Assembly (NCBI RefSeq): GCF_038025025.1
Contig: NW_027117345.1
Location: 1,798,001-1,862,000 of the forward strand
Source of the DNA: Phyllosticta citribraziliensis
Lineage: Eukaryota
Reading direction: 5' to 3'
DNA: 64,000 bases
Of this stretch, positions 34,997 to 39,587 are shown one piece after another (position 1 is the stretch's first letter; each line of letters opens with the position of its first letter). The notes below the pieces were generated by a model. That model had not been told where the DNA came from. It worked only from the letters and a program-made list of their open reading frames with translations, and ran no database searches. The position numbers were made by a program, and so were the translations under genes.

Positions 34997-36279
34997 ATGC
35001 CTCCACCTGTTGTGAGCACACTCCCATCTACAGTTGGTGAAGATGTGACTGACCTGAGCGAGCGCAGACGCCTTCGCCTCACCGATTCAAGCCGCTGCGT
35101 GACTCTAGATCTTCTCACAAGCCGCCGTCCTCTCTTCGCCAGGCACTTCCGCCTCCGTCTCCTCATACGCCGCATGACCGAGAACCTCGTCACAATGTGT
35201 CCAGCTCGCAATTCAAACCAACGCCGCGCTTCTCGGTTCCTGCATCCAGACATGATGCCGACGTGACGGGATCTCAATTCAGCAGAAATGCCGCTCCCGG
35301 AACACAACAGTTTGGCCCCAGTTTGGATACGACGGACAGCATTGAGGACTCGTCGCAACAGGATGTCGAAGCTGAAGAGCAAGGGGACCCAGCAGATGAG
35401 ATGTTGTGGGACTCCGAATCGCGAGTGGTCGTGGAGAGCGTCGAGCCTCGTCATGCTTCGATCGCTCACTCACACGGCGATATCCACATGCCGCAACGAC
35501 AAGGAAACGCCGATTTCTTCAACGAGAACCCGGCCAAGCGCCGAAGATTGTCTCTAAATGCCGACGCAGCGCGAGAAGCAAGTGTTGAAGCCGATCCAGG
35601 CCGCTCACTCGCACGACGACCGTCACATGGAGACACACATCCCAGACATGATCCGTCCACCGTGACCCAGCGAGCCGCATCACTATCCAACCCAACAAGC
35701 CCACCACGCACAGCACGGCCACCACGCTTCAAGCACAGCGAAGCAACGCCCCACCGCGCCTACTCACTCGACCCAACCACAGCAGACCCCCTACCACCGC
35801 CTTCAACAACATCATCTCGCCCACGCAACCCCTTCCGCCTCCCGCCCTCCTCCAGAAACGCCAACAACGCCGACTTCGCCGACGCAACCCCGCTGCCCGA
35901 GCACTTCTCCCCGCACCGCCGCAACCAAAAGTTCGTGCCGGGCGGCATGGCCGAGACGGTGCGCGGCTGGGTGCTGGGCGTCGGCCACGGGCCCGACAGC
36001 AGCCGCTCATCGTCGCAGCTGTCGCGCATGGTTGTTTCGCGCTCGACCGAGACGGTGGGCGCCAATCCGCTGCGTTTGCTTGCCGGAACGGCGGCGACGG
36101 GAGAGAGTGGCGAGGACGTGAGGGCGCTGTTGGTAGGACCGGCGAGGGGCGGGCGTGCGGGCGTTGCGGTGGGCGATGAGGTGAGCATTGCCGCGCCGAG
36201 TTGGGATGTCGATGTCGGGAGCGGAGCGGAGAGGCGGAGGTGGATTGTCGGTGTTGATTGGAGTGTGGACAAGAGATGA
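34997..36279 (+). CDS. Conserved-looking fungal hypothetical protein; disordered N-terminus, beta-rich (OB-like) C-terminal domain
   Basis: 15-nt first exon MPPPV (34997-35011), intron 35012-35067, then open frame to 36279; motifs FKPTPRF, FSPHRRNQKFVPGGMAETVRGWV, GDEVSIAAPSWDV, WIVGVDW; NLS-like PAKRRR. Confidence 0.8.
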
Positions 36280-36422
36280 GAGTTTAGAGGCTGGGAATGT
36301 CTTGATTGCCTGCGTCGGTTGCGTACATGCACTGTGCCTAGGTACGTATGCAACTTCGCGCTGTCCGTCATGCCAAACAGCAGCCCAAAAACACTGCCAC
36401 CATCAAACCTCTCAGATCCTCC

Positions 36423-36427
36423 AAAAA
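36423..36427 (-). terminator. RNA polymerase III terminator (T5) of the tRNA-like gene
   Basis: TTCTTTCTTTTT follows the discriminator base on the minus strand. Confidence 0.65.
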
Positions 36428-36438
36428 GAAAGAAGTGA

Positions 36439-36587
36439 CCCCGTCGCCGAGAATCGAACTCGGGTCTCCAGTCCTTCGCGGCGCTTTACCAGTGCTCGCG
36501 GCAGATCCGACAAGCCTTGCCTGCACGCCTACACAGTTGTTGAAACTGCTTGAAAGGTCTGGCGGGCTACCACTGCACCACGACAGA
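36439..36587 (-). tRNA. tRNA-like gene with ~75-nt insert/intron and non-canonical anticodon arm (anticodon ambiguous: TTC/Glu or TCA)
   Basis: Acceptor stem TCTGTCG/CGACGGG + G73; A box TGGTGCAGTGG; T arm CCGAG-TTCGATT-CTCGG (B box); variable loop AGAC; anticodon stem CCAGAC(C)/(G)GACTGG; T5 terminator 12-16 nt downstream. Confidence 0.8.
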
Positions 36588-37247
36588 TTTGTTTTACATG
36601 AGCTTCTGGGACTGTGGGTTATAAGGCAGCTGCTCAAGGGGTCTCGAACAGTCTAGTAATTTTTGGAGCAAATGTTGGATTGTAAATTATAGAGTAAACG
36701 ACTGGGCGAAAATGAACGACAGAAAGAAGTGCTCAGCCAGCAGACACTGAACGCAGAGTATATCACCGCGGTCGATGTGGTCGAGTCGGTACTGTACTTA
36801 CTCGCTGTCCGTCTCTCCGGCGTTTATTGCCTCGCATGGCTAGCCAAAACGAGCGAAGCCCATCACACTGTCTTCTGCATCGTGCTGCTCTCCGTGACCG
36901 TGAATACCGTATATCCGTGCGCAAGTGGAGAGAGGGGCGGATGAAGACAAGGCCTGCCTGCATGCGGCTCGCTTTGTCACTTGCGGGCGAAGACGGAGCG
37001 GTCGTAGCGTTCTTAATTAGATGTTGATTTGTGAAGGTTTTTACATGCTGTGCTACTGCTACTGCTGCTGGATAAAGTATGATACCGTTGGATACATGGG
37101 AAAAGAAAAGGTCTATCTATAGTCGTTTTGTCTGTCTGTCTGCTTCCTCATCTCTCATGCACGCCTGAATTAAGATTAAGTCGTGAGAACGGAAAAAGGG
37201 GAGAGGGACAAGTGAAAAGAGAGGAGAGGCATTAGCAGCGTCCCTCA

Positions 37248-39587
37248 TCAATTCTTCTCGCCCACCACCTCAGCTCCCGACGCCGCTCTCGACGCCCCCT
37301 GCGCCTCCAACTCCTTCTCTTTCGCCGCGGACGAAAGCACCGGCGCACCCTCCTCTCCGCCATGCCCGTCAACTCTGCTGCCCTCCCTCGTCGAATCCGG
37401 GTCGACCTTCTCAACCCCCTTTTCGTCCGCAGACGGATCATTTCCGCTCGTCTGCGCGTCGAGCGGCAGCTTCTCCTTCGCGTCGACGACGCCCGGCAGC
37501 GGCGCCGGCGCATCGCCAACCGGCGGCGGGCTCTTCAAGTCCGAATTGGCCGACTTGATACTCCGCCACTCGACAGCCGCGGAGCCAAGGATAGAGAGAC
37601 ACGCCATGGCCAAGCCGACCTGGAACGCCTGGACGAGCGCATCGTTATACGCGGCCAGGACCTGCGGCAGGATGTCAGCGGGGACGCGCTGCTGCAGCTC
37701 GGTAGCGCCGATGGCGGTGATTGAGCGCGGGTCCAGGTCCGTCAGGCCGGACACGCCGCGGATCAGGCCGTTGGTGAAGATGCTCTGACCGACGGCGACG
37801 AAGACGGCGCCGCCGAGCTGCTGCGAGAAGAAGAGGAGTGTTGTTCCCATCGGCACGTCGATGCGGCTGAGCACTGTTTGGATGGCGATGTTGCTTTGCT
37901 GGATGGTAATGGAGTCAGCAGTGCGCGAGGGTTGAGTGAGAGGACGGGGATGACATACCTGCATGCCGAGGCCAAGGCCGAAGCCCAGGAGGACTTGGTA
38001 CCCGATCCAGGCTGGGTGGCCGGTGTTTGTGCGGAACGTCGTAAGCATGCCGGCTCCGATTGAGACGATGACGCTCGAGGCGATCAGGAATGGGGTGTAG
38101 TAGCCCATTTTCGAGACGGTTATGCCGGTCAAGATGCTGGCGACGACGAGACTCAATACCAGTGGCAGCTTGTGACAAGTCAGTGGAGAAAAGCGGAGCG
38201 AAGTAAAGTCCATCTTTACTTACGTTCATGATGCCTGAATGAACAGCAGACGCGCCCTTGATGGCTTGGAACCAGATGGGGAGATAGTACACAAAAACAA
38301 ACATGCAACTTTTGCAGTGTTAGCCGGAATGGTAAGTTCATCAGAAAAGGCTGGCATACCTTGAGTTGCAAAAGGTGAACCAAAGAGTACCAGCCACCGT
38401 GCGGTTGGAGATGATCCGCGGAGCAATGGTGGCCGTGTCATTCTTGTTGCGCAATTGGAGCCCAATGAAGGAGAGGAAGAGCACTCCAAAGACGCAGAAG
38501 AGGAAGATGATGCGCCAGTCGTTCCAGGCGTATTCGTTGCCGCCCCACTGAAGAGCGAGTATCTAAAGAAAGGGTCAGATTTACACATTTGATCAATTTG
38601 GTCGGACGTACAAGACAAATAATTGAGGGCATAAACAGAACCTGCCCAAGAGGGTCAAGCTGGATGATTTTTTCCTTGAGCGTGAGGCCAGCATTACGTG
38701 GCGGAGGCGTATCCTTGAGCACAAAGAGAATCAACACGGCCGTGACTGCACCAATTGGCCTTTTACTCGTCAGCATGGATCTCAAAAGACGCGACGCACA
38801 TCTTACAGGTTCAAGTAAAAACACCAACGCCAGGTTGCAGAGCTGGACGCAAAGGCGCCGCCAATGAGGGGTCCCGTGACGGAAGCGATCCCAAAGATTG
38901 ACCCGGCGAGCCCTTGGATCAGAGCGCGCTTTTGGAGCGGCATCAGTGGGATTGCGAGTAAGACACCGCCTGTGAACATGCCTGCAGAGCCGAGCCCCGC
39001 GATGGCTCGGCCGAGGATGAAGGCGATGGAGTTGGGTGCGGCGCCGCAGACGGCTGATCCGACAGTGAACAAGAGCAGGTTGATCAAGTAGACCCATTTT
39101 GGGTTGTAGAAGGTGCTGTGGCGACTTGTTAGCAAGCGGGAGATATTGCGGAGCCGAGAGGCATACTATAGCTTCCCTATGACGAGTTGAATGGAACAGG
39201 CCGTGAGCTTTCACGTCATTAGCGTATGGAACGAGGTTGGAGTATTAGTCCGAATTCACCATGTATGCACTTCCATACCATCCCTAAATCCATTAGACAA
39301 CATTTGTAGACTTGATTTTGACAGTCGTAGCTTACAACGTCTCCGAGAGAATGGAATTCATCAGTAATACGCGGAATTGCCACACCAACAATTGTTCGAT
39401 CCAAAGCCACCAGGAAGATTCCTGCGTAAATGCCGAGAAGAATGGGAACGACGACTCGCGTTGGGGGATAAAGAGGCTGTGGAGAACCTTGGTGGTCTCC
39501 GGCTTCGACATCTGTCTTCTTGCACGGCGAATCATCGCAAGGGGCTTGCGCATCAACTGCACCATGTTCGGGCTTTTTGTCGATCAT
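37248..39587 (-). CDS. MFS drug/toxin:H+ antiporter (14-TMS DHA2, AflT-like efflux pump)
   Basis: [91 protein letters not shown]; about eight short introns. Confidence 0.95.

Follow-up and report, generated by a model that had tools for sequence, protein, structure and literature searches.

At 36439..36587 on the minus strand of the window, which is the whole 64,000-nt stretch of Phyllosticta citribraziliensis DNA analysed here, lies a 149-nt tRNA-shaped gene (C8:1834439-1834587), one of 11 complete copies of a gene family and referred to below as the window copy. The features described for it in the first-pass annotation, including the acceptor stem, the D and T arms, an A.A mismatch and a T5 run, were all found in place. 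A TATA element (36620..36623, -) is located about 33-36 nt upstream, and a T5 sequence motif of the Pol III terminator (36423..36427, -) follows the gene. The predicted 5' exon (36551..36587, -; 37 nt) holds the 5' strand of the acceptor, the A box and D arm, G26, the 5' strand of a 6-bp anticodon stem (36557..36562, -) and the loop C-U-UUC-A, whose letters occupy positions 32-37 of the 6-bp register (36551..36556, -), namely C32, U33, the triplet UUC and A37. It is followed by a predicted TSEN-type intron of 76 nt (36475..36550, -), present as a single copy in the genome, in which G36477 (intron position -3) can pair with C32. The predicted 3' exon (36439..36474, -; 36 nt) carries G38, the 3' strand of the stem, a 4-nt variable loop, the T arm with the B box, the 3' strand of the acceptor and the discriminator G73. 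The acceptor (36587-36581/36446-36440) includes the pairs U1-G72 and U3-G70, the D stem carries U11.C24, the T arm is free of mismatches, and the anticodon stem, CCAGAC/GACTGG, contains the A.A mismatch (A36558 opposite A36472). In the unspliced form, this stem lengthens to 10 positions (9 pairs).

The Rfam tRNA model RF00005 scored the window copy at 32.9 bits (E 4e-4), above the gathering score of 29, and the tRNA-model scoring proposed in the first pass was thus positive. ARAGORN missed the gene by default and, at a relaxed threshold, reported it as Glu(ttc) with a 76-nt intron. Because a free fold of the 149 nt was not better than that of shuffled sequences (z -0.37), the support for the window copy comes from the model score and from its paralogues. 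On one side, the gene converges with an open frame of 408 codons without a Pfam match (35053-36279, +); on the other, a same-strand frame ending at 37248 appears, by eye, to be MFS-transporter-like (the piece tested had no Pfam match). A Zn2Cys6 factor and a tannase are also encoded nearby, in keeping with a filamentous fungus. Two related species conserve the 408-codon frame. RNA-library contigs extend from it across the window copy, which is on the opposite strand, so that an antisense overlap between the 3' end of the frame and the tRNA-like gene is possible. Two such contigs, X5 and X7, enter the window copy from this neighbouring gene and cannot show the window copy's own expression. The window copy is solitary, and the T-runs of its terminator mimic a purine tract on the other strand.

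The first pass had missed that this is one gene out of a family of 11 copies whose triplets vary. A DNA search of the genome (31.4 Mb, 22 contigs), combined with two independent patterns, one for each half of the gene (5' and 3'), returned 11 complete copies on six contigs: C3, C4 (three), C5 (two), C7 (two), C8 and C11 (two). Reversed-pattern controls gave no matches, and the remaining three pattern matches comprised a Gly tRNA, a site without relation to the family and second matches to loci already counted. This count rests on DNA and pattern searches, and more diverged copies may be missed. Two further copies are broken. At C5:1748884 (L049, -), an internal deletion has fused the 5' strand of the acceptor directly to the variable loop and T arm, with the TATA and terminator kept. 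At C11:1118856 (L062, -), which sits between both complete C11 copies, only the 5' half is left; its loop position 37 is G and the start of its insert resembles the C4/C5 subfamily.

The complete copies are 149-215 nt long and consist of nearly identical shells with inserts of 83-149 nt between the stem strands. Inserts could be aligned in 6 of 55 copy pairs, giving about seven insert lineages, and flanks are unrelated between copies except inside tandem pairs. An upstream TATA was found for 7 of the 11 copies, compared to 27 of 59 canonical tRNA genes and 1.6% of random stretches of the window. Runs of T4 or longer occur within 30 nt downstream of 10 of the 11 copies (51 of 59 canonical genes; 8.4% background).

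Over 22 pairs in the 11 copies, 95.4% of shell cells were paired, against 31-51% in slid controls, and the covariation score of the shell, which the kinship of the copies can inflate, was reached by none of 500 column shuffles. Two-sided changes were observed in eight shell cells, six of them within the 6-bp stem, where three of the six pairs carry such changes and 93.8% of cells are paired across copies. Judged from this alignment, a 6-bp stem characterises the family as a whole and does not result from damage to one copy. The family covariation, like the RF00005 score, agrees with the initial description of a Pol III-type gene that derives from a tRNA and has an elongated anticodon stem. The shell itself is a mosaic: the acceptor is Glu-like (scores of 8.7 and 8.2 for Glu, next type 1.8), the 3' part resembles Gly(UCC), and the D and anticodon arms resemble those of Val(AAC), Arg(UCU) or Gln(UUG). 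A single parent tRNA was not nameable, the ungapped shell identity being 29-32 of 52 for seven anticodon types.

A dispersed multicopy family with tandem pairs and internal A and B boxes could represent a tRNA-derived mobile element, either a SINE, as the first pass had suggested among other options, or the solo LTR of a Helenus-type TRIM. With criteria taken from the accessible parts of PMC10886601 and PMC5063351, flanking direct repeats of at least 8 nt were found at 0 of 11 copies (canonical genes, 2 of 35), a result on which the SINE-like proposal fell. TG..CA ends with a 5-bp duplication were found at 1 of 11 copies (canonical genes, 3 of 35), which is not the window copy. Additionally, the cloverleaf is intact, a 3' body or tail is absent, the TATA lies outside the unit, which closes with its terminator, and the insert separates the A box from the B box. 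Helenus TRIMs (PMC10886601) and AfuSINE2 (PMC5063351), as far as the accessible text of these papers describes them, also derive from tRNAs, carry A and B boxes and occur in fungi in low to multiple copy numbers, whereas the family has no LTR ends, target-site duplications or 3' tail and keeps a full cloverleaf under pairing constraint. The mobile-element reading is largely refuted, and the chance that it holds appears very small.

Of 79 tRNA loci gathered from the same genome for comparison, nine did not parse and 11 Ser/Leu genes with a long arm were excluded, so that 59 type-I genes entered the set. It is not exhaustive, the Rfam search having scored 63 of 714 candidates. Ordinary genes were found for Glu (eight; six CUC, two UUC), Asp (six), Gln (five; four CUG, one UUG) and Val-AAC (five). 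The possibility that the family substitutes for a missing Glu, Asp, Gln or Val gene was ruled out, since ordinary genes exist for all four.

The reading of the family depends on the register in which the anticodon loop is placed. In a 5-bp register, U33 and a purine at position 37 occur together in none of the 11 copies, compared to all 59 canonical genes, and the anticodon-intron pair is present in 2 of 11. The latter count had first suggested an unspliceable family, an idea that was dropped once the 6-bp register showed splice marks. In the alignment, an invariant A (A37) lies six bases beyond the 6-bp stem in all 11 copies, and the 6-bp register was picked after this A was noticed. In that register, position 32 forms a Watson-Crick pair with intron position -3 across a 3-nt bulge in 9 of 11 copies (C-G in seven, U-A in one, G-C in one), including the window copy (C36556:G36477), and in six of the approximately seven insert lineages. 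This cell tops a 7x10 register grid (nine copies; next best, seven), and the canonical genes peak at the same cell (35 of 53). The binomial p value is 1.6e-4, or about 0.01 after 70 cells, and a column-preserving permutation gave p 0.029. Of the models offered by the first-pass annotation, the 6-bp stem with a 76-nt intron, labelled Glu, therefore holds the right frame, which the whole family conserves through A37 and the 32:-3 pair.

According to the accessible portions of PMC10485636 and PMC6614914, eukaryotic TSEN requires a proximal anticodon-intron pair and a 3-nt bulge. An extra stem pair could disturb the TSEN ruler, as the part of PMC4090602 that was available indicates, and the distance from the tRNA body to the splice sites is one pair longer than usual if the variable loop is counted as 4 nt. 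We infer that this distance would be canonical if the top pair were 26:44 with a bulged G and a 5-nt variable region. The thermodynamic probability of the anticodon-intron pair was non-informative, with a median of 0.0008 in 54 canonical genes. Insert ends were also compared with the intron ends of Glu genes (539 comparisons, at best 8 of 9 letters alike), but in the 5-bp register, and this likeness carries no weight here.

The loop residues associated with decoding behave differently from those associated with splicing. Position 33 in the 6-bp register is A in five copies, G in four, C in one and U in the window copy only, compared to U in 59 of 59 canonical genes. The triplets are AAC (three copies), CAC (two), TAC, CAT, AAT, AAG, TTG and TTC, read as Val, Ile, Met, Leu, Gln and Glu. 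On the evidence of these aligned positions, the family keeps splice marks and not the decoding mark. Splicing at the 6-bp register would yield RNAs of 72-75 nt and introns of 76-142 nt; the 53 canonical introns measure 8-71 nt.

Some of these observations could also be expected if the copies were atypical decoding tRNAs with a 6-bp stem. A 73-nt tRNA-Glu(UUC) would come from the window copy, and the other copies would decode Val, Ile, Met, Leu or Gln weakly, with identity set by the anticodon. The spliced length is consistent with this, as are the absence of G34 from all 11 copies and the presence of A35 in nine, and the window copy unites U33, A37, the 32:-3 pair, UUC and the Glu-type acceptor. 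Six-pair anticodon stems occur in tRNA-Sec and tRNA-Pyl, and a tRNA with G33 is functional in Candida. However, U33 is absent from 10 of the 11 copies, the eight ordinary Glu genes are already present, and the window copy would have to decode while bearing C32-G38, U11.C24, the A.A mismatch and two G-U pairs. Compared with a canonical tRNA-Glu(UUC), the window copy has a Glu-type acceptor, with two pairs as G-U, the UUC triplet and the same six loop letters, but its 5-bp register gives C33 and C37 in place of U33 and a purine, and its positions 32 and 38 are not left unpaired. Furthermore, about 2.8 windows of the form Y-U-N-N-N-R would be expected by chance in 11 copies and four registers with even base use, and two were found, both in the window copy. 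Decoding is thus a rather improbable role for the family, and the window copy is unlikely to be a working Glu tRNA.

The window Y-U-UCA-R at register +2 and the discriminator G73 are what speaks for a UGA-reading suppressor or selenocysteine-like tRNA with a 7-bp stem and a 74-nt intron, another model of the first-pass annotation. At register +2 the 32:-3 pair is missing, with U32 facing C at intron position -3, and none of the other 10 copies supports this register or has a Y-U-N-N-N-R loop in registers -1 to +2. The 7/5 fold and 4-nt variable loop, as opposed to a 9/4 fold with a long arm, and the Rfam call of a plain tRNA also argue against it and bear out the earlier statement that the gene is not a tRNA-Sec. 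The probability of this reading is close to negligible, and stop-codon reading by the window copy is unlikely. Applied to fungi, general tRNA finders produce many Sec calls that are false, according to the accessible part of PMC5330540, and no more than three dikaryan genomes retained such calls in a kingdom-wide survey, with introns not mentioned in the accessible part of that paper (PMC8826637). Such finders can mislabel genes of this kind as Glu, Val, suppressor or Sec tRNAs.

The window copy differs from its paralogues around the splice site. Its G38, which is unique in the family and found in 0 of 59 canonical type-I genes, pairs with C32; positions 32 and 38 pair in 2 of the 59 canonical genes. 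In a constrained fold, C32-G38 and three more pairs, formed by three loop U residues, zip onto the 3' bulge and bury it (P=1.0), and the probability of 32-38 pairing exceeded 0.5 in only 2 of 54 canonical precursors. The extension of the helix comprises five pairs in the window copy, two in one other copy and 0-1 in the remaining nine. The 10-bp extension noted in the first pass is present in the unspliced window copy but private to it, and the covariation among the 11 copies concerns the 6-bp stem. Because only the window copy can zip its loop onto the 3' bulge, the fold suggests that this copy may be spliced poorly.

These properties bring in the possibility of a natural tRNA-scaffold RNA that remains unspliced, with the shell providing promoter, end trimming and stability and the insert staying in place as a displayed domain. 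Engineered tRNA-scaffold RNAs reportedly consist of a tRNA body in which a folded domain replaces the anticodon loop; the family differs in being natural, eukaryotic and multicopy and in keeping splice signals around the insert. The 10-position helix that hides the 3' bulge, the covariation of the lengthened stem and the lack of a spliced contig in four runs all fit a scaffold. However, an unspliced RNA needs neither an invariant A37 nor a covarying 32:-3 pair across exactly 3 nt, and the five-pair extension occurs in one copy of the 11. A scaffold is unlikely as the explanation of the family, and among the copies it is most plausible for the window copy.

Seven sequencing runs from five studies cover part of the region, and the contigs of four were compared. 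No intron-skipping contig (joint across 36550-36475) was found in these four runs, two of which are probably DNA; contigs drop rare forms, and mRNA libraries miss small RNAs. Synteny of the window copy holds in two related fungi, and the neighbouring spacers are not alignable at 80%. In related species B, one contig aligns to 35600-36603 through the whole window copy (88 other letters, 19 gaps), followed by 232 unaligned bases. The five indels inside the window copy in this species all lie in the predicted intron (among 12 of 21 indels listed), and species B also has family paralogues. In a third species, 36443-36500 aligns with six differences and a 163-base spacer does not align; a loose contig end matches the intron, by eye, at 23 of 27 letters after a 3-base insertion.

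The conservation data also bear on whether the copies are old, long-intron tRNA-like genes that have stopped yielding a useful RNA and are in decay, or that persist only as binding sites for TFIIIC, with the splice marks as leftovers. This would be in line with the two broken copies, with the two private changes that created G-U pairs in the window copy (positions 3 and 72) next to its A.A mismatch, and with inserts that are mostly unrelated among copies, and transcription of the genes is a prediction from sequence. Binding at the DNA level needs the A and B boxes only, yet two-sided changes occur in the acceptor and in the 6-bp stem, and there is covariation in the splice pair. Moreover, the shells have remained nearly identical while inserts and flanks diverged beyond alignment, and the window copy outlasts the adjoining spacers in two other species. 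Decay or TFIIIC binding is not a probable account of the family.

We tentatively favour the view that the 11 genes, as their sequences suggest, are non-decoding tRNA-shaped hosts that release their insert as a structured small RNA. In this view, transcripts made by Pol III would have their ends trimmed by RNase P and RNase Z, and TSEN would cut after A37 and before position 38, which in the window copy would free the 76-nt intron 36550-36475. The ligated 72-75-nt shell would be a by-product. Release of the insert is the role toward which we lean for the family because the decoding base U33 is missing in 10 of the 11 copies. The freed intron would survive, aided by a hairpin at its extreme 5' end; Xrn1 requires a single-stranded 5' end, and such a hairpin could slow it. 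The intron would then act as a regulator in the manner of the free tRNA introns of yeast, which regulate complementary mRNAs and one of which circularises, according to the accessible part of 10.1101/2025.11.19.689297.

A helix that starts at position 1-2 was predicted for 10 of the 11 family introns (5.0 expected; p 0.002) and for 13 of 30 canonical introns of at least 25 nt (10.1 expected). The family introns folded only slightly better than shuffles (mean z -0.8; window copy, -0.67). No motif common to the family was found among the predicted introns, no Rfam match was obtained in the intron of the window copy or in eight family loci, and the window copy's intron had no other match in the genome and no target was found for it. 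C/D or H/ACA guide RNAs were considered as the intron's content and set aside, with no Rfam match and no shared box motifs or ACA tail seen by eye.

The mild folding and the lack of a shared motif, Rfam match or target weigh against the release of an insert RNA, as does the lack of intron-skipping contigs in the four runs. The register was chosen post hoc, with the 5-bp register giving the pair in 2 of 11 copies, the 11 copies amount to about seven lineages, the additional stem pair could upset the TSEN ruler (PMC4090602, accessible part), and the bulge of the window copy is predicted to be buried.

Comparison with known systems places the family closest to intron-containing tRNA genes. TSEN-spliced tRNA genes and yeast fitRNAs, in the accessible parts of PMC10485636, PMC6614914, PMC4090602 and 10.1101/2025.11.19.689297, have in common with the family an intron after purine 37, the proximal pair, the 3-nt bulge, A and B boxes and a T-run. 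The family departs from TSEN-spliced tRNA genes in its 6-bp stem, the loss of U33 in 10 of 11 copies, its variable triplet and introns of 76-142 nt that differ by copy. The tRNA-Glu(UUC/CUC) genes of the same genome (L093-L100) have nearly the same acceptor and gave the best canonical score on the family model, 41.6 bits (window copy, 113 bits, a value high by construction), whereas the D and anticodon arms of the family are nearer to Val(AAC), Arg(UCU) and Gln(UUG), its 3' part is nearer to Gly(UCC), and its stem has one pair more. Neurospora milR-4, located 3' of a tRNA-Ala and released by RNase Z and Dicer according to the accessible part of PMC3547838, is likewise a fungal Pol III unit from which tRNA-processing enzymes free a small RNA, but the family carries its cargo within the anticodon loop, and this cargo does not form a long perfect hairpin. 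By its sequence characters, the family looks like a TSEN substrate and stands outside canonical tRNA-Glu, tRNA-Sec, SINEs and Helenus elements.

Searches beyond the genome, in collections in which fungal genomes are few, returned few candidates. The tight 3' pattern matched no loci in JGI metagenomes and none in viral contigs, and one locus in GTDB genomes, which was taken as a chance match, being no tRNA by ARAGORN and having no family D arm. A looser D-loop/T-loop pattern matched at least 120 loci, mostly prokaryotic tandem tRNAs, with the family signature in 0 of 120 among the matches listed; three single-shell candidates among those matches scored at most 22 bits. Searches of a literature collection lacking most subscription papers turned up no account of a comparable family.

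More doubtful than insert release itself is the broader proposal that a fungal lineage made tRNA genes into dedicated hosts, with decoding off and the stem longer, from which TSEN frees structured regulatory RNAs of 76-142 nt, one per copy. If true, the family would be a tRNA counterpart of snoRNA host genes, and the window copy might switch between being spliced and remaining unspliced in its zipped form. If confirmed, these would be natural genes selected for tRNA splicing and not for translation, which bears on why eukaryotes retain tRNA introns, and their 6-bp stems would offer natural substrates with which to probe the strictness of the TSEN ruler.

The comparison set also yielded observations on other Pol III-like loci of this genome. 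Introns are present in 53 of the 59 parsed type-I tRNA genes, and unusually long ones (54-71 nt) occur in the ordinary tRNA genes L031, L077, L093 and L088/L089. C5:1025495 (L101), C8:1271361 (L102) and C9:667336 have a common B-box-like 3' motif, and the two related sites examined among them have an upstream TATA and an A-box-like start without a tRNA call or Rfam match. C5:1857905 (L103) and C8:444439 (L104) are near-identical units of about 150 nt with a TATA, a hairpin, a B box and a T-run, which are not tRNAs and have no Rfam match. Three of the six tRNA-Asp(GUC) genes, C1:1705458 (L108, -), C7:2056991 (L117, -) and C11:151031 (L124, +), carry a second, mRNA-type insert in the T loop, with a GT start, a branch-site motif and an AG end, which splits the B box in genes where the normal intron is also present.
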